Shown here: piece after piece, positions 7,205 to 35,445 of the stretch
Layout: each line of letters starts with the position of its first letter
How positions within the stretch are numbered: the first letter of the stretch is position 1
Origin: a virus
Reading direction: 5' to 3' (one strand)
DNA length: 64,000 nt
IMG/VR virus record: IMGVR_UViG_3300044838_000061
Coordinates: 1 to 64,000 of that record
Program-made: the position numbers and the translations under genes
Notes under the pieces: generated by a model
Database searches by the model: none
What the model was told of the DNA's origin: nothing
Seen by the model: only the letters and a program-made list of their open reading frames with translations

Positions 7205-8451
7205 GCCCCGAGTCCCTGGTACGTCGTCATCACGTTGCTGACACGTTCAATGCCGTCATCGTCGATGTCCATCGACCACCCGAAGACGCGGACCGGCTGG
7301 GGGTTCGGGTAGCCGACCTGGAGCCTCCCGCGCCGAGCCTGAACGTAGACGATGTCGCCGAGGTCGTAGTCCTGGAAGGGGCGCGGTACTCCGGGCGTCT
7401 TGTCGTCCGCCGAGACGACCGGCCGAGGCGTGAAGGTGATGACCGTCCAGGGCCTCGACTTGATCGTGACCTCGGCCTGTGCGTAGGCGATCAGGATGTT
7501 GGGGTCGACCACCTCCGAGAGAGACGTGTTGACCTCCAGCAGCCCGTTGACACTCTGGCTCCCGATGTCGTCGGCGCGACCCACGCCGTACTGACCGATC
7601 ACCTCGAGCCTATTCTGGGTCTGAGTGCCATCCGCCGTGCGCGAAAACGCGGTGCAGTTGCCGGGGTAGGAGAAGATCGTCTGCTGTCCCCGGTCGATGC
7701 CACGGCCGTTGGAGATAAGCGAGGACCCGGACGCGCCCTGCCCATAGAGGTGCATCTTTCGCGTCAGGGGATCGACGAAGAAGTCCACGCCGTTCTCGAC
7801 GTTGACGAGCTGGAGGATCTCCTGGCCAACGTTCTGGAACCGCTGGAGCGTCAGGTTGCGCTGGTATGGAGTCCCGTAGACGTTGCCCGGCGTGATGAGC
7901 GTCGGTGAGTCGATGTTCGCGCGGTTGAGGAGGTCGAAGATGATCGCCGCGTCCGAGGTCTGCGGGAACTGTGAGGCGCTGTAGGCGAGCTGGATCGCGG
8001 TGTCGATCCCGAGCGACGTGTAGGCACCCCCGTTCGCGGTCTGCCACGCGACACCGTTCGGTGCGGCGAGCATCGCCTGGAACTCAGCCCCGGTGTGGAC
8101 GAGGCGTCCATTGCTGCCGCTACCTCCGAGTCCGTTGAACCACCCGTAGGAGACGATGTCGACCTTGTCGCTTCCGCTCTGCTGCCCGGTTCCGGAGGCT
8201 GAGGATGAGTCGTTGGCCTGCCAGATCGCCCCCGAGTAGACGGTCTGACCGTCGCGGTCGAGCCTCAAACCCGTCTGGTGCGGGACGATCTTCGGCGCGT
8301 CGGGGTCGAGGAGGTGGACCCATCCCGTCACCTTCCCCTGGTTGTTGAGTCGAGGCTCGAGGTGGCGGTTATGGACATTCAGCTGCGTGATCTCGCTCAT
8401 GTCCGAGGAGTTGATGAGCCACCAGTCCCACAATGCGGCGGGGACACTCAC
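7201..8451 (-). CDS. minor tail / hub-like protein
   Basis: Position after Dit and LamG genes; C-terminal PFQDYDLGDIVYV motif typical of siphovirus hub proteins. Confidence 0.7.
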   Translation of the reverse strand: MSVPAALWDWWLINSSDMSEITQLNVHNRHLEPRLNNQGKVTGWVHLLDPDAPKIVPHQTGLRLDRDGQTVYSGAIWQANDSSSASGTGQQSGSDKVDIVSYGWFNGLGGSGSNGRLVHTGAEFQAMLAAPNGVAWQTANGGAYTSLGIDTAIQLAYSASQFPQTSDAAIIFDLLNRANIDSPTLITPGNVYGTPYQRNLTLQRFQNVGQEILQLVNVENGVDFFVDPLTRKMHLYGQGASGSSLISNGRGIDRGQQTIFSYPGNCTAFSRTADGTQTQNRLEVIGQYGVGRADDIGSQSVNGLLEVNTSLSEVVDPNILIAYAQAEVTIKSRPWTVITFTPRPVVSADDKTPGVPRPFQDYDLGDIVYVQARRGRLQVGYPNPQPVRVFGWSMDIDDDGIERVSNVMTTYQGLGA

Positions 8452-10424
8452 GCGAGCACCGGAGGGTCAATGGTCAAATAGTGGGCCGGATCGGAGATGA
8501 CGCGCTGGCCGACCGCGAAGTGTCTGGCTACGCGCCGGGCCGAGAGCGCGCCGTTGTAGAGGACGACTTCTGACAATAGGTCGACCCCCGAGACAGAGCC
8601 GAACGCGCCTGCGTAGAGCGACTGTCCGGCGTCTGCCACTGCCTGCGCGCCGAGCGCTCCCTGAGCGATCTGAACCCCGTTTAGGTAGAGCCTCATCGTC
8701 CCGCGAAAGCAAGTCGCGACGGCGTGTAGTGGGACCAGCGGGACGGTCCCACCAGTCAGGATCACCGAGGAGCTTCCGTTCCCGAGCTCGAAGGAGAGCT
8801 GTCCGTTACGGAGGGTGAATGCGTACGGCGCGGCGAACGTGTTGGCGGGATTTCGCTTTCCTAGGATCCCGGCGGTCTCCGACGCCGAATACGGCATCAG
8901 CCACGCCTCGATCGAGATGTCACCGACGATGCGGAGGGGCGCTGTGTCAGATATCGCCATGTTCGCGCCTGATAAGACGGAGGACGCCGCTGCTGGATCG
9001 CCTTGGATCAATGCCGGTCCGAGCAGCCTGTTGGGCACGCCAATCGGAGCGCCGGGCTGGCCGAGTAGGCACGCTGGCTGGATCGCCACGGTGTACAGGT
9101 ACATTTGGTGGCCGTTCGCGTCCGTGACCGCGCGGGCTGTGCTCACCCCGGCGCCCACCTGGTTGGCCGTGTCGTAGGCGATCCCGACTGCCGGGCCAGC
9201 GGCCGTTTGCTGCCCTTGTGAGGTGCAGGCGGCGGCGAAGGTGAACGAGTCGGCTGCCGCGGAGTTGGTGTCCGCGATGGCGATCGTCAGGAGCGCGCAG
9301 CCGCCTACCGTCGTCGTGACGGTAGGTGAGCTTCCGCCCGAAGCGACCTGATGCGCGCTGGCGCTCGCGTTGATCGGGGCCGTCTGGCTCGCTCCAGTCC
9401 AGCGGGCGATGACCCCCGACGCTAAGGCACTGCTAAAGCCCCAAGCGTAAGACGCCGGTTCGGTCGCCCCGGCAACCTTGTAGAAGAGCTGACTATTGTC
9501 GATTGAGCCGTTGGCATCCGCTCGCAGCGGGGTCCAGCCCGCGAGCGTGGCGACGGTATTACCGACGGCGAACGCGGCGATCAGCAGGTCGCCCTGGACC
9601 GTTCCGGCTGGCTTGTTGATCGTCAGCGTGCCCGAAGTGGACTCCGCCCCGGCCGTCGCGGCCGCGGCTACCGGACCGACCCCGTTCGTGTACGTCCCGT
9701 TGTTCGTGCCCTTCACGTCTGCGGCGACGGTGCCGGAGGACTCCCCAAGCGGCCAGAGGGAAACGAGTGAGGACTCCGCGAGGACGGTCTGGCGGTAGTT
9801 CGTCGCGTTGTAGTGCGCGGCCACCTGGCCCGCGGAAAGAACGCTGCTGAACTTCGAGATGTACTCAAGGTTGCCCGGAAGGTTGCTGCCGCCGCCAGTG
9901 TTGGCGGCGATAGTGAACGCTGTTGATCCGACCGACCACGCAGCGGGCGTGGACGTGCCCGACGGACTCCCGTCGATGTAGAAGCACATCGTCGTACCGT
10001 CGAACGTGATCGCCCAGTAATGCCATGCCCCCATCGTGAACATCCCGGACGATTGTGTGTTATCGGCCGCCGACCACTGCAACTTTGCGTTGCCGCCGCT
10101 AACGGAGATCTCAACGACTCCCGCGCCGCCTCTCCCAACGATGTAGGTGCCGTTGGCCATTGATGACGGCGGCTTCCACCAGCCCGAGATCGACCAGCCC
10201 CCGGCAGGCGGGAACATCAACGCTGAGTTGTACGGCACGCTCACGTACCCGCTGGCCCCGTCGAGCAGTACCGAGGTCGCGGGAATGGCGTTGTAGACGC
10301 CCAGCAGTCCGTACCGAGCGGCCCAGTCGGCCGCTTGGATAGTTCCCGCGATGTCGTTCTGACGCCAATAGCCGACAATGGTCGGCTCGCGACGAATCAT
10401 CGTGTAGTAGTCGCTCGCCGCCAT
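8448..10424 (-). CDS. LamG/concanavalin-like tail (receptor-binding) protein
   Basis: Two LamG cores (WHYWAITFDG..FYIDG; LHAVAT..MRLYLNG..EVVLYNGALS) plus an internal beta-rich domain. Confidence 0.8.
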   Translation of the reverse strand: MAASDYYTMIRREPTIVGYWRQNDIAGTIQAADWAARYGLLGVYNAIPATSVLLDGASGYVSVPYNSALMFPPAGGWSISGWWKPPSSMANGTYIVGRGGAGVVEISVSGGNAKLQWSAADNTQSSGMFTMGAWHYWAITFDGTTMCFYIDGSPSGTSTPAAWSVGSTAFTIAANTGGGSNLPGNLEYISKFSSVLSAGQVAAHYNATNYRQTVLAESSLVSLWPLGESSGTVAADVKGTNNGTYTNGVGPVAAAATAGAESTSGTLTINKPAGTVQGDLLIAAFAVGNTVATLAGWTPLRADANGSIDNSQLFYKVAGATEPASYAWGFSSALASGVIARWTGASQTAPINASASAHQVASGGSSPTVTTTVGGCALLTIAIADTNSAAADSFTFAAACTSQGQQTAAGPAVGIAYDTANQVGAGVSTARAVTDANGHQMYLYTVAIQPACLLGQPGAPIGVPNRLLGPALIQGDPAAASSVLSGANMAISDTAPLRIVGDISIEAWLMPYSASETAGILGKRNPANTFAAPYAFTLRNGQLSFELGNGSSSVILTGGTVPLVPLHAVATCFRGTMRLYLNGVQIAQGALGAQAVADAGQSLYAGAFGSVSGVDLLSEVVLYNGALSARRVARHFAVGQRVISDPAHYLTIDPPVLA

Positions 10425-10427
10425 TCC

Positions 10428-13232
10428 CTAATTCCAACTGCCGCGGTAAAACATGAGCAGCTTCGTGTTGGTCGAGTAGCTCGATCCGGCGATGAAGACG
10501 TCGTTCCAGTTCGGCTCGAGCCACATCCACTGCGGGATCGACGTGATTAGGTACTGCTTCTGGGAGGTCCCGGACGAATTGACGAGGGTCCTGGCCGCGC
10601 AGTCGAAGGCGAGGTAGTCGCCGTCGGCGAGAACTCCCGTCCAGTTGATCTGCTGCCCATTGGTCAGGTTGAGCAGGATGAGGTTGGAGATCGCCCCGTA
10701 GACCACGATCAGCGGTCGTTCGGGCGCGGTGCCACGGTTCCTGACGAAGAGGATCTGGTTCTGTAGTTGGACGCTCCCAGGGATGATCGTGCGCGCCGTC
10801 AGGGGTGCGGTGAGGGGTGCCCCGAACCCCAGCTGCGTCGTGTTCCCAGACGTCGGCACGAGGACCTGACTGTGGCTTTGCGTCGAGCACTTCGCGTATG
10901 GCTTACTCGTCCTGACGGTGACTTGGAAGGACCGCTTGAACTGCGTCATGGAGTCCTGGGACTCCTTGATCGACGGCTTCGTGACCGGCTTAGCCCAGAA
11001 CGACACGTCTGCGGGACAGATCGACGCCGCCCGGAAGTCATCGAGCGCCCAGTTCGTCCCAACCGTCTGCGCCCCGAACCCGACCTGAGAGAGAACCTGG
11101 TCCCCGTAGGAATCGGCGTCTGACCCCGTCAGTGACGCCGAGACCGTGAATGTCGGCAGTGTGCTCTCGGACGGCGGAGAGGCCCAGAGTTCGCCCGTGA
11201 CGTAGTCCCCGTCTTTCCTCGCGCGCAGCCAGATTGACTGCCCTTGCACGACCCCAGTCACGAGTGTTGTCGCGAGCACGGTCATCACGCCGGCGTCCAC
11301 CACGGCGATAGTGATCGTCGGCGTTCCCGAAGCGACGTTGTAGGAGACCTGGAGGTAGTTGTTGGCGTCGACGAGGCACGGGGCGACGTAGGCCGTCGAT
11401 GCGTCGGTGGTCGACCCGACGACGATTCGTACGGTGGTGACGGCGTCTCCCCACAGTCGGTTATCAGCGCTGCGCATCAGCATCACGTTCGAGGTCGTGA
11501 GCCACTGGAGGACGCCGCCCGAGACGGCCAGCGAGGCCGAAGACCCGATCGTTGCGGTGTAGTTCTGGAGCGTCTGTGGGTCGTCAAAGGTGTCGTAGAC
11601 GTCGAACCATCGGAATTTCATCGGTGCCTCACTCAGCGGTGCGAACGCTGCCTTCAGGTCGCGCTCAAGCCTCTTACAGACCCCGAGCGACCCGGCTTGG
11701 ATGTCGCCCGAGATGACGAACGTATTGTGAGTCGGGATCATCTCTCGGCCAGCAAGATAAAGATGGTTCGGAGAATCAACCGAAATGCATCTAACTGGCC
11801 GACTTGCCACTGACTTCACTTCTACGATGTATCGGAATCGCTCGACTTCGGGATATTTGAACGCCGCGCGACGGGCGCGCCAAGTTTCTGTCTTGCGACT
11901 CAGCCAAAATACATTATCGTTCGGAACGAAACTCACATTCCATTGTGGACCGCATACCGTTCCGTCCCTTCTCTTTGATACACCTTGTCTGATTACCGCC
12001 CGATATCCAAGTGATAGGACTAATTCTAATACGTCATTAGCTAGACGCTCATTTGTGTTATCAAATTCGACCCTGCCGGAATCTCCAACTGTGCCATCAG
12101 TATCCAACAATCCAGCAAGCAGCGCACGACGTTGCTTGATGGATGACTGCATATATTCGCGTGGAATATGTTTGTTGCGCTTTGATTCTTTCTTGCTCAA
12201 AAGTCCCATTTTACTTAGAGCAGCACCGAGTCCATGAGAGTAAGGGGGCGTTGAACGGACAATCCATTCAAGTGCTACGGGTGTCCGAGTGACCTTGTAA
12301 CCATCGCGTCGAATGTAGTCGATGATTTCCTCATCCCATTCCGGCACGTATAATTTGGGAAAGTATGAATTACCATCTCCAAGCCATGCGCCGAGGGTAT
12401 ACGGCCTGATAGGAAGATCACATTCTGAGTATCTAAGTGGACCTGCTATACGTATGGCATGGTTTGTGTCGCCATTTGACACTCGCAGAGTTGCGCTGAT
12501 CTCTTTAGTCGTATGAATTGCTGAGCTATGTATGTGTCCAGAATCCTTCAGCCTTTGGACTCGATAAGTCGCCGCAGTTTCGGCAGCCTCTACTTCAGTA
12601 TCAAAAACACCGAGATCACGCCGAAAATATCCACCGTGGTATGCAACCCACTGATTGCCTTCAGACCTAACTCCGCGGTATCGTGAGGATGCTTTGTCGC
12701 GGCGGCCGGCGTGTGTATTGCGCAACAGTTTGCGCGCCGCCGCTAGCCTGATCCTAGACTTCAGATCGACCGTTGCCCACCGATGATCTGCGTCCGCGAT
12801 TATGCAAGATCGACTTACGTCAGTCTTCCCAGATGAGAACCAAACTTCATAACAAGGTCGACCACTAGGCTGTGGATAAACGCTGATGACATTGCAAGGT
12901 TCGCCCTTATCATCAAAGACTTGATCTCCTACACGAAGATCCTTCATCAATCTCCAACCATTGGGGGTAGGGATAGGTGTTTCGTCGTCTAGTGCGCGCC
13001 CGCGGTACCAAGAGTCGTAGACGAACTCCCCCTCGTCACCGGGCACGACCTCGCGCGAGTCCGTTATGTCCGCCCCGTCGAGTCCCGTGATACTCGTGAC
13101 GCGGATCCGGTCCGCCTGATGGCGGTCGTTGATGACGTACCCGTTGTACTCGATGAACGCCTGTACCCCGAACGACAGCGGAGAATCCCAGGGCGCTGTC
13201 TGGTGTGAGTAGGTACGTGAGGCGACGGTCAC
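10428..13232 (-). CDS. distal-tail (Dit)-like protein interrupted by an intein
   Basis: Directly follows the tape measure; Dit-like N-terminus and C-terminal NRGTAPERP...WLEP; intein at residues 80-503. Confidence 0.8.
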   Translation of the reverse strand: MTVASRTYSHQTAPWDSPLSFGVQAFIEYNGYVINDRHQADRIRVTSITGLDGADITDSREVVPGDEGEFVYDSWYRGRALDDETPIPTPNGWRLMKDLRVGDQVFDDKGEPCNVISVYPQPSGRPCYEVWFSSGKTDVSRSCIIADADHRWATVDLKSRIRLAAARKLLRNTHAGRRDKASSRYRGVRSEGNQWVAYHGGYFRRDLGVFDTEVEAAETAATYRVQRLKDSGHIHSSAIHTTKEISATLRVSNGDTNHAIRIAGPLRYSECDLPIRPYTLGAWLGDGNSYFPKLYVPEWDEEIIDYIRRDGYKVTRTPVALEWIVRSTPPYSHGLGAALSKMGLLSKKESKRNKHIPREYMQSSIKQRRALLAGLLDTDGTVGDSGRVEFDNTNERLANDVLELVLSLGYRAVIRQGVSKRRDGTVCGPQWNVSFVPNDNVFWLSRKTETWRARRAAFKYPEVERFRYIVEVKSVASRPVRCISVDSPNHLYLAGREMIPTHNTFVISGDIQAGSLGVCKRLERDLKAAFAPLSEAPMKFRWFDVYDTFDDPQTLQNYTATIGSSASLAVSGGVLQWLTTSNVMLMRSADNRLWGDAVTTVRIVVGSTTDASTAYVAPCLVDANNYLQVSYNVASGTPTITIAVVDAGVMTVLATTLVTGVVQGQSIWLRARKDGDYVTGELWASPPSESTLPTFTVSASLTGSDADSYGDQVLSQVGFGAQTVGTNWALDDFRAASICPADVSFWAKPVTKPSIKESQDSMTQFKRSFQVTVRTSKPYAKCSTQSHSQVLVPTSGNTTQLGFGAPLTAPLTARTIIPGSVQLQNQILFVRNRGTAPERPLIVVYGAISNLILLNLTNGQQINWTGVLADGDYLAFDCAARTLVNSSGTSQKQYLITSIPQWMWLEPNWNDVFIAGSSYSTNTKLLMFYRGSWN
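11724..12995 (-). mobile_element. class 3 intein (424 aa) with LAGLIDADG endonuclease and AP2 domain
   Basis: Starts ALDDETPIPTPNGW; block B ADADHRW; block F VRCISV; ends IPTHN|T; LGAWLGDG and LLAGLLDTDG; visibly more AT-rich than the flanks. Confidence 0.93.
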
Positions 13233-13235
13233 CCT

Positions 13236-16200
13236 CTACAGAGCTCCACTGACCTCGTGCGCCAGCTGCTCGCCGATGATCGACGGGTCGAGCGAGGTCG
13301 TCGGGGCGTGGTTGATGTTCAACTCGCCGATGGTTGGCGGAGTCGTGCCCCCGGTTACGCCAGTGAAGGTCGGAGCGATCGACGGTGCGGATCCGGCCGG
13401 GAGCGACGCCTGGAACTGCGGCAGGAGGTTCCCCATCCCGCTGAAGATCGCGGTGCGGAATGAGGACCACGCGCTCGTCGACCACTGCTGGGGCTGGAGC
13501 AGCTGTCCGTTGAGCGTCGCGAGCTGCTGGTTATTCTGGGCGATGGCCCCGGTGTTTGACTCCAGACTGCTGATGAGTCCCTCGAACGTGCTGATCCACG
13601 CCGCGTCGTGGCCCGACTCGATCCCCGAGATGTTGGCCCCCGAGAGTGCGGTGACGAATTGCTGGGGGGTAGACGCCTGTCCGAGCAGCGACGCGAGTCC
13701 GGACGCTCCATCCCCGAGCTGACCCAGTTGTCCTAGGAGTCCAGTGTTCGTTCCCTGGAGGCTGGTGTTGCTCATCGACGTGAGCGCCTTCAAGGACGCG
13801 ACATCGGTGAAGCCTGTCGTCTGCCCGATGGTCTGGATGATCTGTCCGAGACCACCAAAGACGCCGGTCTGGAACTGGCCCCGGGACTGGATGTACTGCG
13901 CGGTCTGGTTGACGACCTGAGCGGTGTTGTCCTGGAGAGCTAGGTCGTTCTGTGCCAGTTGCGCGGTCAGCCCGTCGATCGTCTGAGTCAGCGTCGCGAC
14001 CGCCCCCGTGTCCCCGGCGGCGCTGGCCTGGACGAGGAGCGAGTTGTAGGACTGGAGCTGGCCCTGAAGACTCGACTGGTTGAGTTGAAGGGCCTGGAGG
14101 TTTGTCGCCCCGGCCGCGGCGAACTGTCCGGGAGTCGAGGCCGACTGGGTCATCGTTTGGGAGATCGACTGAAGCTCGGAGACCTTGGCCTGCTGGGTCT
14201 GGGCAGTTTGCTGGACGGCCGAGATCGAGTCTTGGATCATCTGGGCCGTCATCTGCACAACTGATCCCTGAAGCTGTGCGATCTCCTGCTCGATCTGCGA
14301 CGCGAGCCCTTGGTCACCGCCGGCCACGGCCTGCGCGAGAACCGCCTGAAGCGACGTGATGTGCTGCTGTGTCGTTTGGATGATGGCCGCGTCGATGCCT
14401 GGTAGGAGGCTCAGCTGGCCGAGGGACTGCGCCGCCGACTGGATCGCCGACTGCTGCGCGGATTTGGTCTGGAAGGTCTGCTCGACGGCGGAGAACTTGT
14501 CTTGGACCATCTGGATCGTGGCCTGGCCGACTGTCTGGTTGAGCTGAGCGATCTCCTGCTCGATCTGCGCGACGAGGTCAGCGTCGTGCATCTTCTTGGC
14601 CTCTTGAAGAGGCTTCTGGAGCGCCGATATCTGGTGCTTGGCGGACTCGGCCAGCGCCTTGTCGATGGACTGGAGCGCGCCGTACTGGCCCTTACTCTGG
14701 GCGGTCGACTGGGCCGCCTGTATCTGGGTCTGCTGGGTCTGGTAGACGTCGCTGACCTGATTCAGGGTGTCCTGTACGTACTGCTGCTCGGCCTGGAAGG
14801 TCGTCGTGATCTGGGAGTTGATCGAGTTGTTGAGGCCCTCCTGCTGCTGGACCAGGAGCGTGTAGGCACTCTCCAGCTTCTTGACCGTGGAGTCCTTGGT
14901 TGACTTGGAGAGGCGCGACCGGCGTACCTTCGAGATCCTTGACTTGACCTCGTTGATCGCCTTGGTGGTCGCCTCGGCCTCGCGGCGGAGGTAGTCCGTC
15001 TCCTCTACCGAAGCGCGCACCCCCAGCGCGTCCAGCTCGGCCTGACCCGTCTCCCCGATGTGTCCCGTACCGGAGGTGACCGTTCCGACGCCAGCGACGT
15101 GCCTCGTAGTCAGGAGTCCTGCTCCCCTCAGTGACACGCCGCCGTAGCCGCTGCCGGCGAACCCAGCAGGTGTTCGGTGGGTCACACGTGCCACCGATGT
15201 CGGGCGAACACTCGCTGATCGGTACCCGATCCCCGTGATCCAGTTCGTTAGGTTGTTCTGGAAGCGCTGGAACGCGGCCGAGAGCATGTTGAGCGTCGAG
15301 TTTGGGTTGTTTGGGTCGGCGAACGCCTCCAGGAGCGTCCCGATCTTGTCCGTCTGTTTCTTGATCGGGAGCGCGTCTATCTTCGTGAAGGCGCGCACGA
15401 CTGCCTGGAATACGCCCGAGAGGACCTCGAGACCACTCGTGAGTGAACCGGGGTCGATCTTGAACAGGTTCGCCGAGACGCTCTGGAGGAAGCTTGTCGC
15501 CGACGACACGGTCTTGAAGTGCTTCGGTACCTGTCCACCTACATCGAAGTGCTGCCGCGGTGCCTCGCTGTCATAGCCTAGGTGGGAGTCGAGTCCGTGC
15601 GCTCCCATGCCCGTGATGCGCCCGAGCTCGTCCCACTGCGGCGGATTGACGACGCGCTCGCCCTCGTGCGCCATGATCGGCACCGGCTCGCCGCCCCACG
15701 GCGCTCGACCGCCACCTGCGAAGCGAAGGACGTGCTTGCGGAGGTGACGTAGGCCGATACGCCTCGCATGCCGAGTCAGGAGGCCCCCCGCCGCGTAACC
15801 CTGTGCGTAGGCGGCGTTAGCACCTGTAATGCGGTTTGACATCGCCGGGATACCAGCGCGCTCGAATCCCTGCTCAAAGATGGTCGCGGCGTCGCCCGGA
15901 CTCTTGGCAGCATTCATCGCCGCCTTCAGGCTCTCGATCTGAGGCAACATGGTCTGCATCTGGTGTAAGAGCGAGCCGCCTGAGCCAGACCCGAAGTTGC
16001 TGATCTGCTGCCACAGTCCGCCGCCAGCAGCGTTCGGGTCCATCGAGGACTCCTGGTAGGCGTTGCCGAGCATCCCCGCGATGGCGATCTTGTTGAACCC
16101 TGCGGCGCTCATGAACTGATCGACTTGTTTCTCGACCGAGCCGCTGAGCTTCACGTTCGGCATCCCGGCGCTACCGACGAACCTGGCGAGGTACTGGTTG

Positions 16201-19200
16201 GCGGCGTTGGTGACCTTGTTGACGACCCCCTGCGCGATGGCCCCCCACGCGCCTCCCACGCCTTTGACCTTCGGCGCGACGAGCTTCTGGATGGCCGCGA
16301 GTCCACCCGTGATGACACCGCGCTGCAGTCCGCTCAGGAAGGTGCGGAAGGACGACCCGGCAGGCGTTACCTGTCCTTCTTGGTAGCCGGTGGTCGCCAT
16401 CGCCATCGTCTCACCGCTGGCGGTCGCCCAGCCCGTCTCTATCCCGGACCCTGAGGTCGCGTAGTAGGCGATCCGCTGTCCCTCGCTGAGGGTTCGACCA
16501 ACCTCTGCCTGGAGGGAGCTGGTCGCGCGAGGGTCATTGGAGGGGATCCCGGGAACTCCGGTGATCTGCTCGGCGACGTAGACGTACTGTCCCGCGTCGG
16601 GTCCGCCCGTCAGCTGGTACCAGATGAGCGGCTGGCCGTTGTACCAGCCCGGCTTCACTCCCTCGACGTGGGCGTTCCCGATTACGCCGATCGGCGTTCC
16701 TGGCGCTAGGTCGACGTCAACGCCTTGGTCGGTGCGTCCCCAACTGACGTTCGCATTCCCGAAGGGCGACGTGTAGATACTCGCGTTTCCGACCAGTCCC
16801 CCCTTCGCGAGGTGCGGTGAGTTCTGGAGGTAGCGACTCAGGAGTGCGCGTTGGCGTGGTGCGTGTCGCGGGTCGGTGGTGAGGGTGACCTCATCGTGAC
16901 CGCCCTCCGCGACGTGGACCAGCCTGCCTCCGGGCTGCGCGGCGTTCCAGCCACCCTCCGCCTGCGACATCACGCCACCAGCGCTCAGCGTTCCGCCGAG
17001 TAGTCCCGCGATCACGTTACTTTGAGTGACAGGGTTGATCTGCCTCGCCCCAGTCCCGAGCGAGATCCCTCCCTGCCCGAGTGCCTTCAGGGCGTTGTCC
17101 AGCATCCGGTCAAGCTGGCCCATCGCCTTCCCGACGCCGCTGACGCCTAGCGCCGCGAGTGTCTGGATCTTCGTGAAGGCCGCAGCGGTAAGTCCGGTGA
17201 CTTGCTCGGTCCAGCCCTGAGTTCCCTGAATGAAGTTCGACGAGATCGCTTGGTTGTCCTGACTGAGTTGCTGCTGGATCTGGCCCATGACGTTCTTGGT
17301 TGTCGCGTCGAACCCGGTGAAGGTCGTCGCCCACTGCGCCCCCGACTTCTTCAGCGCGACGTTGAGGGGATTCAGCTCATTCGACAGCGCGCGGATCGCC
17401 TCGCGCTGTTTCAGTGTGAGGTCGGGCTGCTGACTGAGCTTCTGGACCAGCCCGTACATCGACTGGAGCTGGGAGTTGCTCAGTTGCGACGCGTCGGTGA
17501 CGCCCTTGAGTCCTTGTTGGAGCCGAGATAGGTCGGCGGTCGTTCGCGAGCCTTGATTTGACGACGTTGAGGACCCGAGCAGTCCGAGCGTGGCGAAGTT
17601 CGCGAAACTGCTAAGGCTGATCCCAGACTCATGCGAACCACCGACTGGGCCGAGCATCGACGCGAGATCGCCCTTTGTGCTCTTCCCGGCCGTGATGTTC
17701 TGACCGAAGGCGTTGGTCTTGTCTGCTAGGTAGGCAGCGGCGGCGATCGGGAGGACGCGCGTGAGGCCGAACCGGGCCGCTCCCACGCCCGCGGCGGCGC
17801 CGCCCGCTCCGACCTCAGCGGCGGGGACTCCGGCTCCGCCAGCTCCGGCCGCGACTCCGCCTCCGGCGGCCGTTCCACCGGCCGCGAGGATGGCGAGGTC
17901 GGCCTCCTCGGTGGTAATGAGCGTCGTCTGCTCGATGATCGCTGCGTCCACGGCCTGTTCGTCGGCTACCTGGCGCGCGGAGGACGCGTCGGTCGCTCCG
18001 GCTAGCTCCGTCTGTGCTGCGGCTACGTCGCGTGTGGCCTTGGCGCCCTTGGAGATGCGCGTCGTCAGCGCCTCCCACGCGGCCCCGATACGGTTCAGTA
18101 TCCCCTCGCCCTCCTGGAACGCCTTGAAGGCATCGAAGAATCCGTGGACGACGTTCGTCGCGGTCGTGACCAGCGATATGACGCGGTTCAGCACCATGAG
18201 TCCTAGGAACGCGGCGACTAGTCCGACGACTACTGCCTTCAGCGGGGCGACAGCGTCGAGCAACCTCATGAACTGGGTGACGAGGAAGCCGACCGTCGTC
18301 GCAAGGATTCGCGCCGCTGGCAGCACGATGTTGTTGAGCAGTCCCGCGAACGCTCGCAGTGACGTCAGGTTGAAGACTTGGATCAGCGATGACCCGACGT
18401 TGAACAGCACTCCGCCGATCAGGCCGAGTCCTTGGCGGGCGTCCGAGAAGAACCTGGTGACCTCGGGGCCGTGGTTCTGGACCCAGGTCGTAGCATCGTG
18501 AAGCGCCTCTGTGAAGCTCGTGACCGTCTTCATCCCCTGCGGGGCGGCGTCGTGGCCGAGCGCCTTGAACAGGTCGAAGGTGGCTCCGGCGAGGTGGGCG
18601 AAGTCCTCGGCCCACTTGGCGCCCTGGTTGAAGAACGACGTCAGCCGCGCCTGCCCTTGCGGCGTACGGTCGCGAGCATCCATCGCGTCCCAGAAGCGCG
18701 CCCAGTCCCCCGAGAGCTGCCTGAACGCCGGGGCCGCCGCCGTGGCGATGTCCTCGAAGACCTTCATCAGGCCCGTGATGGCCTTGGTGATGATCGGGAT
18801 GCTCTTGGTGGCGTCCTTCGACATCGTCTCGAAGAACGAGGTTCCTCGCTGACCGAACATGGTCTTCTCGAGGCCGCCGAACTCCTGTCCCATCGCCTTC
18901 GCGAGCGCGTTGATCGGCTGCATGAAGCTCTTGTTGCCGAGGAGCTGCTGGAGCCTCATTCCGGCGTCGAGGAACGGCGTGACGATGTAGTCGGTGATCT
19001 TCTTCAGTGGCGAACTGGGAGAGCGAAGCTGGGTCTCGAGGTTGTTGAGCATCGAGAACAGCGCCTTCTCGGGGGCCGACATCTGGCCCAAGAGGTATTG
19101 GAGCGTTCCCTGCTGCGACGTCATGTGGGACGCCGGCTGGGCGAGTTGAAGCTCGGTGATCCGCATTTGCCGCTGGGCGTTGGCGACCTGCTGCTGCGCC

Positions 19201-20795
19201 TGCACGACAGCGAGCAAGGACTGGCGATAGGACTCGGAGGCCGCGAGAACCTGCGGCGATCCTGTGACTCCGTAGCTCAGCGCGAGTTGGAGGTCTTGTC
19301 GTGATCTCGGCACTGCGAGGTGTGCCTGTTGGCGGGAGACCTGCGCTCCCTGGAGCTGTAGTTGGGCCTGCTGGATGCCGACCTGAGACCCGCTCGCCTG
19401 GACGGCCCGTAACTGCTGTTCCGCCTGGAGGACCGAGAGGTTCGCTTCCTTGAGCTGTAGCTGGGCGCTCTTCTCGGCGAGGGTGAGGTCCTGGAGGTTT
19501 CGGACGGCGTCGATGCGCGCCTGGGTGAGCGCGATCTGTGACTCCCTGACCTGGACCTGGGCGTCCTTGAGGGTGTAGTAGGAGTTCGCGAGGTTCTGCT
19601 CGGACTCGATCAGCTGGCTCGTGTTCTGGAGCTGGTTGATGAGTCCCTGGGAGGGCTGGAAGAAGGCCGTTTGACGCGCCTGCTGCGCCGCTTGGACGGC
19701 CTGGAACACGTCCCTAAGGCGTATGAGGGCGGCGATCCCGACCGAGACCATCGGGATCATCTGGCCGAGTCCCGATAAGAACACGCCTCCAATGGAGGCA
19801 CCCGCTTGTGAGGCACCAGAGGCGACGTTGAAGAACCCAGCCACGAGGCTCCCAAGGCCCGTGATGAGCGGCTGGAACAGACCGAGTAGTGCAGTCAGCC
19901 GAAGCCCTCGCAGCCCTGCCGACAGCGACATGATGTGTACCCCGACACTGTCCGTCGCAGCGGCGAACTTCTGCGCGAACTCGCCCACGGACGACGAGGC
20001 ACGCGCGAGGTCGGTGTTCTTGGCCTTCTTGCCTGCATCCTCCATCGCGTTACCGAAGCGGTGTGCCTCCGACGACCCCGCGTCAAACTGACGCATGACA
20101 GACCGCAGCCCGCTCTCCACCTGCTTGTAGCTGACCTCTAGCTGCTTGTTCGTGGCCGTGTGCGAGCGCGCTGCCTGGTCCGTGCGCTCAAGGCTCCCCA
20201 GTAGCGCTTCTCCGCGCGTCGCAGCCTTCTGTTGAGCCTCGGAGAGCTTGTCTGTCCCTGCCGACGCGCGACCTAGGTCGCCGTCGAGGTCGCGTACCCC
20301 GGCGGCGAGCTGGTCCACCTTCTGCCGCGCTTCCTCCGTGCTGGCACCGAGGTCGACGTGCGCCTGCGCGTGAGAGGTGACCGACTCTGCCGCCTGGTCG
20401 TGCTGCTGGGCGACGCGCTTGACCGACGCTTCGGCGCGCTGAGCGTCCTGTGGGAGTAGCTGCTGCTGGCGCCGGACCTCCTGCAATGACTCCGCGTGAC
20501 CTGTGGCGGCCTCGGACGCTTCCTGCTGCCACCGGGCAGTGCGCTTGACGTCACTCTCGCTCTGCTGAGCTGCCCGTCGCGTCTCCTGCTGCTGTCTGGC
20601 GAGATCCTTGTGGGCCTGGGTCGCTCGCTCCGCCTCGTCAGCGGTGTCGCTGAGCCCCGACCGGAGGTCCTTGGTGGCGTCCTCTCCTGCGGCCTTCGCC
20701 TTGAGTTCGTCTACCGCGTGCTGGAGGTCGCGGATCTTCTGACTGGCGTTATCCTTCGCTTCAAGAAGGATCTCGATGAGGTACGAATCGGACAT
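13236..20795 (-). CDS. tape measure protein with internal M23-like and tail-lysozyme-like domains
   Basis: 2519 aa, Ala/Gln-rich and helical, downstream of the chaperones; AGMLGNAYQES...FEQGFERAG. Confidence 0.92.
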   Translation of the reverse strand: MSDSYLIEILLEAKDNASQKIRDLQHAVDELKAKAAGEDATKDLRSGLSDTADEAERATQAHKDLARQQQETRRAAQQSESDVKRTARWQQEASEAATGHAESLQEVRRQQQLLPQDAQRAEASVKRVAQQHDQAAESVTSHAQAHVDLGASTEEARQKVDQLAAGVRDLDGDLGRASAGTDKLSEAQQKAATRGEALLGSLERTDQAARSHTATNKQLEVSYKQVESGLRSVMRQFDAGSSEAHRFGNAMEDAGKKAKNTDLARASSSVGEFAQKFAAATDSVGVHIMSLSAGLRGLRLTALLGLFQPLITGLGSLVAGFFNVASGASQAGASIGGVFLSGLGQMIPMVSVGIAALIRLRDVFQAVQAAQQARQTAFFQPSQGLINQLQNTSQLIESEQNLANSYYTLKDAQVQVRESQIALTQARIDAVRNLQDLTLAEKSAQLQLKEANLSVLQAEQQLRAVQASGSQVGIQQAQLQLQGAQVSRQQAHLAVPRSRQDLQLALSYGVTGSPQVLAASESYRQSLLAVVQAQQQVANAQRQMRITELQLAQPASHMTSQQGTLQYLLGQMSAPEKALFSMLNNLETQLRSPSSPLKKITDYIVTPFLDAGMRLQQLLGNKSFMQPINALAKAMGQEFGGLEKTMFGQRGTSFFETMSKDATKSIPIITKAITGLMKVFEDIATAAAPAFRQLSGDWARFWDAMDARDRTPQGQARLTSFFNQGAKWAEDFAHLAGATFDLFKALGHDAAPQGMKTVTSFTEALHDATTWVQNHGPEVTRFFSDARQGLGLIGGVLFNVGSSLIQVFNLTSLRAFAGLLNNIVLPAARILATTVGFLVTQFMRLLDAVAPLKAVVVGLVAAFLGLMVLNRVISLVTTATNVVHGFFDAFKAFQEGEGILNRIGAAWEALTTRISKGAKATRDVAAAQTELAGATDASSARQVADEQAVDAAIIEQTTLITTEEADLAILAAGGTAAGGGVAAGAGGAGVPAAEVGAGGAAAGVGAARFGLTRVLPIAAAAYLADKTNAFGQNITAGKSTKGDLASMLGPVGGSHESGISLSSFANFATLGLLGSSTSSNQGSRTTADLSRLQQGLKGVTDASQLSNSQLQSMYGLVQKLSQQPDLTLKQREAIRALSNELNPLNVALKKSGAQWATTFTGFDATTKNVMGQIQQQLSQDNQAISSNFIQGTQGWTEQVTGLTAAAFTKIQTLAALGVSGVGKAMGQLDRMLDNALKALGQGGISLGTGARQINPVTQSNVIAGLLGGTLSAGGVMSQAEGGWNAAQPGGRLVHVAEGGHDEVTLTTDPRHAPRQRALLSRYLQNSPHLAKGGLVGNASIYTSPFGNANVSWGRTDQGVDVDLAPGTPIGVIGNAHVEGVKPGWYNGQPLIWYQLTGGPDAGQYVYVAEQITGVPGIPSNDPRATSSLQAEVGRTLSEGQRIAYYATSGSGIETGWATASGETMAMATTGYQEGQVTPAGSSFRTFLSGLQRGVITGGLAAIQKLVAPKVKGVGGAWGAIAQGVVNKVTNAANQYLARFVGSAGMPNVKLSGSVEKQVDQFMSAAGFNKIAIAGMLGNAYQESSMDPNAAGGGLWQQISNFGSGSGGSLLHQMQTMLPQIESLKAAMNAAKSPGDAATIFEQGFERAGIPAMSNRITGANAAYAQGYAAGGLLTRHARRIGLRHLRKHVLRFAGGGRAPWGGEPVPIMAHEGERVVNPPQWDELGRITGMGAHGLDSHLGYDSEAPRQHFDVGGQVPKHFKTVSSATSFLQSVSANLFKIDPGSLTSGLEVLSGVFQAVVRAFTKIDALPIKKQTDKIGTLLEAFADPNNPNSTLNMLSAAFQRFQNNLTNWITGIGYRSASVRPTSVARVTHRTPAGFAGSGYGGVSLRGAGLLTTRHVAGVGTVTSGTGHIGETGQAELDALGVRASVEETDYLRREAEATTKAINEVKSRISKVRRSRLSKSTKDSTVKKLESAYTLLVQQQEGLNNSINSQITTTFQAEQQYVQDTLNQVSDVYQTQQTQIQAAQSTAQSKGQYGALQSIDKALAESAKHQISALQKPLQEAKKMHDADLVAQIEQEIAQLNQTVGQATIQMVQDKFSAVEQTFQTKSAQQSAIQSAAQSLGQLSLLPGIDAAIIQTTQQHITSLQAVLAQAVAGGDQGLASQIEQEIAQLQGSVVQMTAQMIQDSISAVQQTAQTQQAKVSELQSISQTMTQSASTPGQFAAAGATNLQALQLNQSSLQGQLQSYNSLLVQASAAGDTGAVATLTQTIDGLTAQLAQNDLALQDNTAQVVNQTAQYIQSRGQFQTGVFGGLGQIIQTIGQTTGFTDVASLKALTSMSNTSLQGTNTGLLGQLGQLGDGASGLASLLGQASTPQQFVTALSGANISGIESGHDAAWISTFEGLISSLESNTGAIAQNNQQLATLNGQLLQPQQWSTSAWSSFRTAIFSGMGNLLPQFQASLPAGSAPSIAPTFTGVTGGTTPPTIGELNINHAPTTSLDPSIIGEQLAHEVSGAL

Positions 20796-28607: not shown

Positions 28608-30917
28608 TCAGCTCTCCTTCGTGGTCGAGAGGGTCAGGCCGACGGTCGACCCTGGGGCGACCTTCTCGGCCTCGGCGAGCCACTCGTCGGCGGACGCCGG
28701 GCGGTCCTTGTTCTCCTTCTCCTCGACCTTGCGCTGGTCCTCGGCGTCGACCGGAGGACGACCGGAGATCGGGGAGGTCAGGAGGTCGGCGCGCTCGGCG
28801 AGCGCGAGCTTGCCGGAGTTGTCCACGGGGATCGCGGAGATGAGCGATTCGGCGATCTGGGTCGCCGTGTACTCCTTGGAGCCGGTCGCGTTCCCCTTCT
28901 CGTCGGAGAGGTTCAGCACGGCGGCGACCTCTCCATCGTCGGCGAGAGCGATCTCCTCGTAGCGGCGGCAGAATCCGGGCGGGAACTTCGCTTCCTGTAG
29001 CTCCTTGACGCGCGCCTCGACCTTCGTCTTGCGCGTCTCCTTGGTGACCTCGCCGAGCTGGGTCGAGAGGCGATTGTTGTCTTCGACGATCTTCTGGATG
29101 ACGGACTGCTGCTCTTCGGAGAGTCCGAGCCGCTCCAGAACTTCTGACGTGGTGGGCTTCATGGCCCCTCCTTCGAGCGGGTTTCTGGGGTCTGGGGCGG
29201 TCGTCCGTTCGGCGAGTCCTAGCTCGCTCAGGATCGACTGCCCGTTCAGCAGGGAGGAGACCTCCTCCTTGTCTTGCGCTGCGTCCTCGTCGGTGACCCA
29301 CTCCTTCTGGACCGGGGTCCAGGAGGCGAAGTCGGACAACGACACGCTGTCGCCGTCGACCTCGAGCGGGATCACCCACGCGTCCCTCGTCCCGTCGGGG
29401 TCGCCGTAACTGCAGCGGACGAGCGCTTTGGGGTCAGGGTTGCCAACGACGTCGAGGACGGTGAAGATCGGGTACACCTCGTCGGCCGACCCCATCTCGT
29501 CGAGGTGCGAGACGACCTGCGACGTGATGTCGTTCATCGAGAGCTCGCTCGCTCCCCACTGCACGTCGGCCAGCAGCAGGTCACGGCGGTCGCGCTCGGA
29601 AAGACTCGTCGAGGCACCCACGAGAGAGCGAAGGTCGTCAGGTGGCTGTCCCCCGGACTGGCGGTAAGCGGCGATCAGCTTCCTGGCTGCGGCCTTCTTC
29701 TGGGAGAGGCTCGCGCCCTTCACCTGCTTGATGCGTCCGGCCGCCGCGACAACGCCCTTCGAGTTCAGCGTGCCGTCAGGCTCTCGGATCGGGAGCGAGT
29801 AGCGCTCCTTCGCGCCCTTGACCTCGGCCCCGCGGTCGAGCACGCAAGAGCGCGCCCACTGCTCATCGGTGAACCGCGACGCCGAGCCATCCCACGAGGA
29901 ATCGGTCGCGTCGGCGAGGTCCGCGCGCCCGGGGCGCTCGGAGAGGAGCATCGGGACTACCTCGCGGTCGCCGAACTCGTCGCCGTCCAGCTCGCCATAG
30001 GGGGTCATGCCGGTCACCCACGGCCTGTTCGTCAGCGCGACGTGGTCGATCGTCTGGTCGTACGACTGACCGCTCTCGGTGTTGACGTAGTCGTAGACGA
30101 TCCCGCATGAGCGGTTGGCGATCGTCCCGAGCTCGACCTTCTTGCGGACGTCCGGGTCGCGGAAGTCGTGGGCAGCGACGAGGACCTTCTCGCCGGGCCG
30201 CTTCTTGGAGTCGACGATCTTCAGATCCTTGATGAACCCGGTGTTGTCGAGGACCCCGTTGTCGTGATTCGTCGGGATCGTGACGTGCTGGATCGCGCCG
30301 GCCTTGAAGCTGTCATAGAGGTTCTGGAGTCCGATCTCCTTACGCGGGTCTGACGCCAGTCCAGGAACGAAGACGAGCGGCTCATGCTTCTTCTCGCCGT
30401 TCGGTCCGGGGCGGGTCGCGAGCATCCCCGAGCGCAGGATCGGCGCCCAGATCATCTCGCGGTCCTCGTCGAGGTGGATCGGCTCGCCGAGTCCGTCACG
30501 GACGAAGACCTCGAGGCTGATCCCCTTGCCGCTCTGGTCGAGTTGAAGGATCGACGGGGAGTCGGACTGCGACAGTTGGCTCACGTCTATTGCGGCGACA
30601 CGAGCGGATGACCACTGCGCTCCGGGCGAGCCGCCCCAAAGCATGTCCTCGGCGGACTGAGAGTCGGACCCGGCGAGGCAGGGGCCGTCGTGCGCCGCGT
30701 GGTATGAGGCCATCTCCTCGACGTGCTGGTCAGAGAGCGGCTGTCCGGAGGCGACTCGCCGCCCGACGGCGACGGCGACTGGATCCATGTCGCCAAGCGC
30801 GGACGCCTGCCGTACCCCGCGCTTAGCGACAGTCTTCATCGCCGACGTCGGAGTGTGCTTGTGGGTTGACAGCTCGGTGTGAGCGTTCGCGACCTGCTCT
30901 AGGAGACTCAGTGTCAT
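28608..30917 (-). CDS. capsid maturation protease / scaffold polyprotein
   Basis: DHVALTNRPWVTGM (Mu gpI-like protease) and acidic helical C-terminus. Confidence 0.8.
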   Translation of the reverse strand: MTLSLLEQVANAHTELSTHKHTPTSAMKTVAKRGVRQASALGDMDPVAVAVGRRVASGQPLSDQHVEEMASYHAAHDGPCLAGSDSQSAEDMLWGGSPGAQWSSARVAAIDVSQLSQSDSPSILQLDQSGKGISLEVFVRDGLGEPIHLDEDREMIWAPILRSGMLATRPGPNGEKKHEPLVFVPGLASDPRKEIGLQNLYDSFKAGAIQHVTIPTNHDNGVLDNTGFIKDLKIVDSKKRPGEKVLVAAHDFRDPDVRKKVELGTIANRSCGIVYDYVNTESGQSYDQTIDHVALTNRPWVTGMTPYGELDGDEFGDREVVPMLLSERPGRADLADATDSSWDGSASRFTDEQWARSCVLDRGAEVKGAKERYSLPIREPDGTLNSKGVVAAAGRIKQVKGASLSQKKAAARKLIAAYRQSGGQPPDDLRSLVGASTSLSERDRRDLLLADVQWGASELSMNDITSQVVSHLDEMGSADEVYPIFTVLDVVGNPDPKALVRCSYGDPDGTRDAWVIPLEVDGDSVSLSDFASWTPVQKEWVTDEDAAQDKEEVSSLLNGQSILSELGLAERTTAPDPRNPLEGGAMKPTTSEVLERLGLSEEQQSVIQKIVEDNNRLSTQLGEVTKETRKTKVEARVKELQEAKFPPGFCRRYEEIALADDGEVAAVLNLSDEKGNATGSKEYTATQIAESLISAIPVDNSGKLALAERADLLTSPISGRPPVDAEDQRKVEEKENKDRPASADEWLAEAEKVAPGSTVGLTLSTTKES

Positions 30918-34302: not shown

Positions 34303-35445
34303 TTAGCGGGCGAATCGTGCGGCATCGTCGGCGTCACCACCCTGATTCCCACCCACATCAACGGGTGCCTGCTCGAATGCGGCGCGGACCCGTGCTCGGA
34401 CGCGGTCGCGGTACGGGTGGATGTAGACCTGCTCACAAACGCGCTCGCTGTTCCCGAGCTGCTCGGCGATGTCTCGCGCGGAGCATCCCCGGTCGGCGAG
34501 GAGCGAGCCGCAGAAGTGCCTCAGTTCATAGAAGTCGAGCTTATCAGCGAGGTCTAGCTCGAGCCGACGCGGAAGCCAGTGGGAGCGGTCGAGCTCGCGC
34601 GTGAATGCATCGCGGACCGGGCGCCAGTAGTAGCCCCACGAACCCTTGGAGAACGGCCTACCGTTCGGCGTGACGAACAACCACTCGTCGTCTCGTATCG
34701 CTGTCGACTGGACAGCGTCGAGCGCCTCGGCCGGCACGACCGGCTCGCGCGAGCGCTTGGTCTTGGTGCGCGCCAGTCCATCGGGGCGCCGCTGTCGCTC
34801 GACGAGAACCGTCCCGGCCTCGAGGTCGAGATCGTCCCAGCGCATCCCGGCCAACTCGCCGGGCCTGCATCCGGTCCAGGCGGCGAACAGGATCACCGCG
34901 CGGAACGTCGCCCCGAACAGCAGTCCGTAGGACTCGACGGCGATCGCGCCGAGCCGCCGCACCTCGTCCTCGGTCAACGGCGTGATGTCCTGACGCCCCC
35001 TCCCCTCCGTAATGAGCTTCTCGAATGGGTTGCCAGCGCGGTAGCCCTCTAGGTAGCGAATGGCGTCGTTGAACATGGCGCTGGCGGTCTTGGCGACGTG
35101 GAGACGCTGCTCGACAACGCGCTTGGCCTCGGCCTTCGTGATCCGGTCGAGGCGGCGCTCACCAAACTCGGCGAGGAACAGCCTGAGGTTCGCCTCGTTG
35201 TGCCGGTTCGTGGTCACCTCCGGCCGCGGGTAGTCGACGAGCCAGCGCTGCGCCCACGACGCGACGGTCCCCGCGTACACGCGGCCCTGCTCGTGGAACT
35301 CACGCTCCGCCTCGACCTCCGCGTGGCGCGCAGTCCCCAACTCCGTGGCGGTGCCGCGCTTGGCGAACGTGCCGACGTAGACCTTCCTGCGGACGGCCGG
35401 GGAGTAGACCGAGACCTCGAACTTCTTGCCACGCTTTCGGATCAA
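34303..35445 (-). CDS. int: tyrosine integrase
   Basis: TGCRPGEL (R), TKTK (K), YELRH (HxLRH variant), LGNS, VYIH (Y); N-terminal arm-binding-like domain. Confidence 0.92.
   Translation of the reverse strand: MIRKRGKKFEVSVYSPAVRRKVYVGTFAKRGTATELGTARHAEVEAEREFHEQGRVYAGTVASWAQRWLVDYPRPEVTTNRHNEANLRLFLAEFGERRLDRITKAEAKRVVEQRLHVAKTASAMFNDAIRYLEGYRAGNPFEKLITEGRGRQDITPLTEDEVRRLGAIAVESYGLLFGATFRAVILFAAWTGCRPGELAGMRWDDLDLEAGTVLVERQRRPDGLARTKTKRSREPVVPAEALDAVQSTAIRDDEWLFVTPNGRPFSKGSWGYYWRPVRDAFTRELDRSHWLPRRLELDLADKLDFYELRHFCGSLLADRGCSARDIAEQLGNSERVCEQVYIHPYRDRVRARVRAAFEQAPVDVGGNQGGDADDAARFAR

Follow-up and report, generated by a model that had tools for sequence, protein, structure and literature searches.

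The window analysed here is a 64,000-nucleotide (nt) stretch of DNA, the first 64 kb of the linear, 74,482-bp IMG/VR virus record IMGVR_UViG_3300044838_000061, which is ~80% complete and has a GC content of 64%. A gene for a distal tail protein (Dit) lies on its minus strand, and the coding sequence of this gene is split by an intein. It is highly probable that the uncultured siphophage represented by this 74-kb record carries a class 3 intein in its single Dit gene, as the original prediction had proposed. The parts of the gene and the residues expected to matter for splicing are as follows (amino acids, aa; GC content at third codon positions, GC3; intein residues are numbered from Ala1).

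10428-13232, minus strand: precursor gene, a Dit gene split by the intein; 934 aa plus a stop codon; begins 3 nt past the stop codon of the tape measure gene
12996-13232, minus strand: N-extein, 79 aa, ending in YRGR; first part of the Dit N-terminal ring domain
11724-12995, minus strand: class 3 intein, 424 aa; GC 0.49, GC3 0.425
10431-11723, minus strand: C-extein, 431 aa, starting with TFVI; rest of the Dit N-terminal domain, a ConA-like/carbohydrate-binding module (CBM) insert, and the C-terminal, galectin-like Dit domain
12993-12995, minus strand: Ala1, intein residue 1, which leaves the intein with no N-terminal nucleophile
12852-12854, minus strand: Cys48, aligned with Cys48 of the Mycobacterium smegmatis (Msm) intein DnaBi1, where it is the disulfide partner of the catalytic Cys
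12777-12785, minus strand: block B His71-Arg72-Trp73 (B:10 to B:12); the Trp is the W of the Trp/Cys/Thr (WCT) triplet
11787-11789, minus strand: Cys403, block F:4, predicted class 3 catalytic nucleophile
11724-11732, minus strand: block G Thr422-His423-Asn424 (G:5 to G:7), the C-terminal end of the intein
11721-11723, minus strand: the +1 Thr, Thr504 of the precursor, invariant among the closer Dit alleles

Translation of 11724-12995 (minus strand) yields 424 residues free of stop codons, beginning with Ala-Leu-Asp-Asp-Glu-Thr-Pro and ending with Ile-Pro-Thr-His-Asn. A search with the C-extein finds 35 homologues, most of which are ~510 aa long, the sum of 79 and 431. Nine intein-free homologues (~510 aa) can be aligned without gaps through YRGR↓TFV (the arrow marks the point of insertion); among these, R77, G78 and T504 (precursor numbering) are invariant and R79 is nearly so. 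Thus, the search for intein-free alleles that had been suggested as a check finds 510-aa proteins that run ungapped over the junction, and the proposed boundaries are exact.

Inteins of class 3 are defined by the lack of the A1 nucleophile and by the WCT triplet, made up of Trp at B:12, Cys at F:4, and Thr at G:5 (Kelley et al. 2016, PMC5050341). The window intein has Ala1, Trp73/Cys403/Thr422, His71, His423-Asn424, and Thr504 at +1. Its H71-R72-W73, V401-R402-C403, and T422-H423-N424 match the class 3 inteins 6bs8 and 6rix residue for residue, and the same signature residues are present in the phage inteins of Rousseau DnaB, the SOVA965 terminase, ScoobyDoobyDoo gp195, and the Koguma helicase (34-38% identity). 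The alignment with these six inteins bears out the class assignment of the original prediction, including the complete triad and the +1 Thr. The best matches among PDB sequences (phmmer) are 6rix from Mycobacterium chimaera (E 6.5e-25) and 6bs8 from M. smegmatis (E 1.2e-22). An AlphaFold (AF2) model of the intein, built on 25 relatives, reaches a predicted local distance difference test (pLDDT) of 91 and has the HINT splicing-domain fold. A Foldseek search with this model returns PI-SceI first (template modelling (TM) score 0.63), as well as TliVMA, 6bs8, 6rix, gp41-1, and I-DmoI. The intein call lies beyond chance, because 424 in-frame codons remain stop-free at 49% GC, the phmmer match (6.5e-25) and the match to Pfam LAGLIDADG_3 (1.4e-9) are both strong, and the length of the insert equals the difference in size from the intein-free alleles. 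On the evidence of its sequence, then, the locus encodes a genuine class 3 intein.

The public (JGI/IMG) gene call at this locus, 10431-11741 on the minus strand, spans 437 aa and starts at a Met inside block G of the intein; the protein collection has no entry for the whole 934-aa precursor. The call has been cut to 437 aa because of the compositional shift at the intein, where a 15-point drop in GC probably misleads gene callers. Another short protein, P0029 (438 aa), was considered as a further truncated call; however, it comes from a 1.6-kb contig and is uninformative.

The original prediction placed the intein in a Dit-like protein. This is upheld by the position of the gene, which is the first after that of the tape measure protein, by PHROGs, in which the C-extein matches the Dit family (phrog_33, 1.2e-11), and by the predicted fold. 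The Pfam profile SPP1_Dit scores below its cut-off with the window protein (19.4 vs 25 bits) and is recorded for many of the homologues. The fold was examined with an intein-free allele, P0005, modelled with 20 homologues (pLDDT 78). All of the top Foldseek matches to this model are Dits: those of monocin, 80alpha, NF5, SPP1 (2x8k, E 8e-7, TMt 0.66), and mycobacteriophage Douge. Between the two Dit domains the protein carries an insert:

~11004-11615, minus strand: ConA/CBM66-like insert, residues 116-319 of the spliced protein; CBM66 Z 18.6

The same residues, 116-319, also match the CBM2 of the evolved Dit of phage J-1 (5ly8, Z 15.9). As modelled, the spliced extein is an "evolved" Dit, that is, one with an inserted carbohydrate-binding module. 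The model locates the splice site in the N-terminal ring domain, at a turn between the strand of residues 73-76 and that of residues 80-89, which leads into the helix of the domain. Longer Dit homologues (699-713 aa) were considered as possible carriers of mini-inteins; they were rejected, as their extra lectin-like inserts lie elsewhere and the R-G-[RD]↓T site is uninterrupted. In some of these longer proteins there is an additional lectin-like insert of another kind.

The intein is foreign DNA. Its GC content is 15 points below that of its surroundings, and its GC3 of 0.425 compares with 0.835-0.847 in the two exteins; taken with the tape measure and downstream genes, the exteins span 0.81-0.85. 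Among 1.84 billion representative proteins, only P0039 carries an intein more than 58% identical to that of the window. P0039 (953 aa) has its intein at the same site, and the two inteins are 75% identical, more alike than the exteins (~60%; 57% for the C-exteins). The extein tree groups the window Dit with the intein-free alleles P0005 and P0006 (support 99) and the intein-bearing P0039 with the intein-free P0013 (support 96), and an approximately unbiased (AU) test rejects an extein clade of the window protein and P0039 (p = 5e-5). Homing would be expected to produce such incongruence between intein and extein, as would gain and loss that happened repeatedly. Co-conversion of the flanking extein DNA was looked for by eye between the window gene and P0039; their flanking sequences show no greater similarity than intein-free alleles do. 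We infer that the intein reached this phage recently, from another Dit allele, with a lower-GC relative as its source. Two observations weigh against this account of the locus: a protein divergence of 25% within the closest pair of Dit inteins, which means that the direct donor is unsampled, and the nature of the record, a linear, ~80% complete metagenomic contig whose phage may be defective.

More distant relatives point to where the Dit inteins came from. A census located 181 related inteins in the best 150 proteins. Most of these copies (124/181) follow Gly-Lys and 141/181 follow Lys; Ser or Thr occupies the +1 position in 177/181, and Ala1 is present in 142/181. When 22 of 80 bacterial loci were examined, all had GK↓S/T bar one with a mis-set C-terminal boundary, and a P-loop GK↓S/T site is found at 66/80 IMG/VR viral loci. 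In cultured-phage records that match the intein, all of the annotated hosts are helicases, terminases, exonucleases, or similar proteins (spread sample, 60/815). These counts agree with the earlier statement that class 3 relatives reside mostly in nucleotide-handling enzymes, at P-loop GK↓T/S sites.

Two further members of the collection are themselves Dit inteins. L093, a 98-kb IMG/VR contig, encodes a 962-aa protein that follows the C-terminus of a tape measure protein and whose Dit is 31% identical to that of the window. Its intein (410 aa, 50% identical, including the AP2-like module described below) is inserted at the homologous point, in the site GGK↓T. P0049, a gene call cut short, represents a further Dit intein of the L093 subfamily. 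In a tree of the 45 closest inteins, those of the window, P0039, L093, and P0049 form one clade, with a support of 99.8 in the SH-like approximate likelihood ratio test (SH-aLRT). This clade is nested (99) with P0046 (AAA_10/VirB4-like), P0052 (TraG-like), and P0072, all of which are GK↓T inteins. P0046 and P0052 are found at the GK↓T of ATPases, and inteins of FtsK proteins lie nearby in a larger tree. Thus, the intein phylogeny that had been suggested as a check places the Dit inteins inside a clade of Walker A inteins. The GC content of the L093 intein (0.485) is close to that of its surroundings in a 53% GC genome, which fits a lower-GC source for the window intein.

The simplest history that can be drawn from these data has three steps. 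An ancestral intein would have jumped once from a P-loop ATPase to a Dit with a G-[KR]↓T look-alike, which in L093 is literally GGK↓T. The Dit intein would then have spread over diverged Dit alleles through homing driven by its nuclease, and, as a last step, would have recently entered a high-GC phage from a lower-GC relative. The original prediction had suggested an ectopic invasion of a virion protein. That part stands insofar as a switch of extein is the best reading of a lineage nested in the Walker A clade; the switch, however, is placed once in an ancestor rather than in this phage. One alternative, that the intein jumped directly and independently from a P-loop ATPase gene into this Dit and that the Dit inteins came to a favourable motif by convergence, can draw on a site that copies the G-[KR]↓T context of the relatives, but it can be dismissed as scarcely credible, given that the four Dit inteins are one clade (99.8) at a homologous position in Dits only 31% identical and that the nearest ATPase inteins are only ~42-43% identical.

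The likeness between the Dit splice site and the Walker A context spans three residues only. Because GRT at the splice site is the sole G[KR][STC] tripeptide in the 510-aa Dit, a match to the ancestral G-[KR]↓T context by chance is unlikely. At the level of DNA, the reconstituted 60-bp Dit site was compared with the P-loop sites of the 22 bacterial relatives; 14-28 of the 60 bases agree, no more than would be expected with unrelated high-GC sequence, although the test is a weak one since the inteins compared are 33-40% identical. In the model, the local structure at the Dit splice site is a beta-turn before a strand, not a strand-loop-helix. Thus, the proposal that GR↓T mimics a P-loop site survives at the protein level; it does not extend to the DNA of distant relatives or to the local fold. 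Our reading is that the motif acts as a filter on splice-compatible sites (a basic residue at -1 and Thr at +1), and it is not proof that the target of the nuclease is mimicked. In the distant Dit alleles L001, L002, L009, and L010 (38-42% identical), the homologous site is GGR↓N; the Asn at +1 should leave them unable to support splicing and refractory to productive invasion.

Within the intein, two further modules are recognized between the splicing blocks:

11856-12428, minus strand: double-motif LAGLIDADG homing endonuclease domain; motif 1 at 12372-12395 and motif 2 at 12093-12122, each with Asp-Gly
12546-12689, minus strand: AP2-like module of ~50 aa, between block B and the nuclease, in the position of the DNA-recognition region of PI-SceI

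Pfam reports LAGLIDADG_3 (PF14528, 1.4e-9) and Hom_end (PF05204, 1.6e-4) in the intein. Across the aligned relatives D207 is nearly invariant, and D300 and the block D Lys, K275, are invariant. The nuclease looks intact, since the Asp-Gly ends of the two motifs and the Lys of block D are all conserved. The AP2-like module has the motif YRGV...W.A...LG.F..E.EAA and is modelled as three strands (109-112, 115-120, 126-131) and a helix (134-152). The AP2 profile of Pfam matches neither the intein nor any of 24 relatives, and the segment has no sequence match in the PDB. The module is common to the ATPase relatives P0046, P0052, P0071, and P0072 and to the L093 Dit intein; because it is found in ATPase inteins, it is not a novelty specific to Dit. 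The P0046 and P0052 inteins have an extra Cys-rich insert in the nuclease domain (CxxC...CxxC, zinc-ribbon-like) that the Dit inteins lack.

A mechanism of splicing can be proposed from the conserved residues. The 934-aa precursor would be translated late in infection. Cys403 (block F:4) would attack the Arg79-Ala80 peptide bond to generate a branched thioester, and the N-extein would then be transferred to Thr504. Cyclization of Asn503 of the precursor would free the intein (47 kDa) and leave a 510-aa Dit, joined at the native YRGR-TFV sequence and able to assemble into the tail hub. Since the record contains only one Dit gene and no second copy, splicing is presumably required for building the tail hub. 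The intein is most likely a tolerated selfish element and not a regulator.

The best surviving alternative, which is nevertheless unlikely, is that the intein serves as a conditional switch, as the original prediction had raised: redox or zinc gating through Cys403 and Cys48 would pause the assembly of the tail tip under stress, and this would have been selected for. The splicing domain is indeed homologous to that of Msm DnaBi1, and Cys48 and Cys403 align exactly with its two cysteines. In Msm DnaBi1, H2O2 reversibly blocks splicing through a Cys48-Cys118 disulfide (PMC6195587), and zinc is reported to inhibit this intein (PMC7360933). However, almost all of the aligned relatives, which reside in many unrelated ATPases, have Cys48, and this residue is required for DnaBi1 splicing itself (PMC6195587). 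The presence of Cys48 is therefore inherited rather than a tail-specific adaptation. Moreover, the closest Dit alleles function without any intein, and a patchy distribution, a foreign GC content, and an intact nuclease are traits of a selfish element. By analogy with DnaBi1, sensitivity of the Dit intein to oxidants in vitro is plausible; an adaptive redox role in tail assembly is speculative. In a broader version, also improbable, the Dit intein lineage would be more than a passenger, either by making hub assembly conditional, through its cysteine chemistry, on the redox or metal state inside an infected cell, or as a nuclease gene-drive that drags host-range determinants (the CBM insert of the Dit and the lectin-domain proteins downstream) between co-infecting phages. 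Either way, an intein of P-loop sites would have found a new use in a structural protein via a three-residue Walker A look-alike.

A still less probable alternative is a dead insertion, in which the intein no longer splices and the Dit is either inactive, in a defective phage, or works with the 47-kDa insert in place. Dits do tolerate large inserted domains, and the window Dit already has its ConA-like insert; in addition, the contig is incomplete and the public gene call spans only the last 437 aa. Nevertheless, all of the catalytic residues are intact in both the window intein and P0039 despite 25% divergence. L093 retains Ala1, the block B HxW, the block F RC, and the THN↓T end, and the partial P0049 retains those that are C-terminal. 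The frame is open through 424 codons of 49% GC DNA. Furthermore, the insertion interrupts an invariant R-G-R↓T at a beta-turn within the ring domain, whereas decorations are usually found in surface loops of the C-terminal domain, and the truncated public call is accounted for by the compositional shift.

The genes around the precursor place it in a tail module:

13236-20795, minus strand: tape measure protein gene, 2519 aa, immediately upstream of the Dit gene; fixes the position of the Dit in the tail module
8448-10424, minus strand: gene after the Dit, 658 aa, with two Laminin_G_3/ConA-like domains; tightly follows the Dit gene
34303-35445, minus strand: tyrosine integrase (Phage_integrase, E 2.4e-16)

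At 2519 aa, the tape measure protein is very long, and so should be the tail; its C-terminus is related to that of the tape measure protein of the L093 phage. Among the scanned open reading frames (ORFs), none could be recognized as a clear Tal-like protein, and no tRNA genes were found within the window. The integrase suggests a temperate lifestyle. Neither megablast with the gene nor tblastn with the C-extein and with the 769-aa ORF at 28608-30917 (minus strand) gives a match among 50,697 cultured phage records; thus, the phage is without a close cultured relative. A search of 185,579 species genomes found no homologue of the Dit, and the phage is therefore not a common prophage. A scan of JGI metagenomes yielded two distant intein-free Dit alleles and nothing more.

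Inteins are considered to reside almost only in enzymes that handle nucleic acids. Among mycobacteriophages, 13 groups of intein host proteins have been described, every one of them nucleic-acid-binding; they include a single virion protein, portal, and no tail protein (PMC5050341). To these hosts, a 2025 survey that covers 784 actinophage inteins adds the tape measure, the minor capsid, and a baseplate-wedge-like protein (bioRxiv 10.1101/2025.01.02.630785). In that survey, inteins of class 3 occur in four host proteins only, of which none is a tail protein, and the tape measure is not among the four (bioRxiv 10.1101/2025.01.02.630785). Its authors propose "extein switching" between unrelated hosts via similar nucleotide-binding sites or short motifs (bioRxiv 10.1101/2025.01.02.630785). 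A word search for "tail" has no match in either paper, so neither includes Dit as a host. In the literature searched on inteins in minor tail, distal tail, tape measure, or structural proteins, no case of a Dit host was found. Thus, the idea that a non-enzymatic virion protein is an unusual host holds for the Dit itself, although inteins in virion proteins as such have precedents in portal, tape measure, and minor capsid. The window holds a class 3 intein in an unusual host protein, belonging to a small Dit-specific lineage.

The presence of a monophyletic class 3 lineage in a tail hub protein widens the host range of inteins to a non-enzymatic part of the virion. It also offers an instance of "extein switching" in nature, with no more than the immediate splice context (G-[KR]↓T) held in common with the ancestral Walker A site. 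This raises the question of whether the host range of an intein is set by the compatibility of flanking residues or by the target DNA of its nuclease, as well as the question of whether a low-copy structural protein can carry an intein at little cost. In addition, gene calls that start inside the intein, as here and similarly in P0049, make such inteins easily overlooked and under-counted in metagenomic protein catalogues.

Several known systems resemble that of the window in part. The mycobacterial class 3 DnaB inteins (Msm DnaBi1, 6bs8/6own; M. chimaera (Mch) DnaBi1, 6rix/6riy) share with it Ala1, Asp at B:7, His at B:10, Trp at B:12, the equivalent of Cys48, Val-Arg-Cys, Pro-Thr-His-Asn, and Ser/Thr at +1. 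However, theirs lie in the Walker A loop of a replicative helicase, whereas that of the window lies in a tail protein without a nucleotide-binding function. In addition, the crystallised DnaB intein chains, of 139-146 residues, align to the two splicing-domain segments only, while the window intein adds the AP2-like module and a full LAGLIDADG nuclease. The nearest non-Dit relatives in the tree are Walker A inteins of VirB4/AAA_10, TraG, and FtsK-type ATPases (P0046, P0052, P0063, P0062, P0072). Of these, P0046, P0052, and P0072 are the sister group of the Dit inteins, with the AP2-like module and the +1 Thr in common. They differ in identity (~42-43%) and in being inserted after the G-K of the P-loop of DNA-translocating ATPases. 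The actinobacteriophage class 3 inteins (terminase, Cas4/RecB-like exonuclease, helicase, minor capsid) are alike in residing in a phage gene and in having a canonical LAGLIDADG nuclease. Where "extein switching" has been proposed for actinobacteriophages, the recipients share nucleotide-binding sites, and the recipient motif in the window is not one. PI-SceI (the VMA1 intein, 1lws/1vde) likewise consists of a HINT domain with an inserted DNA-recognition region and a LAGLIDADG nuclease (TM 0.63); it differs in being a class 1 intein with Cys1, in its 17% identity, and in having a DNA-recognition region that is not AP2-like. The Dit inteins of L093 and of the partial P0049 occupy the homologous insertion point and belong to the same clade, that of L093 having the same domain make-up. 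They are 50-58% identical to the window intein, and the L093 site is GGK↓T rather than RGR↓T.

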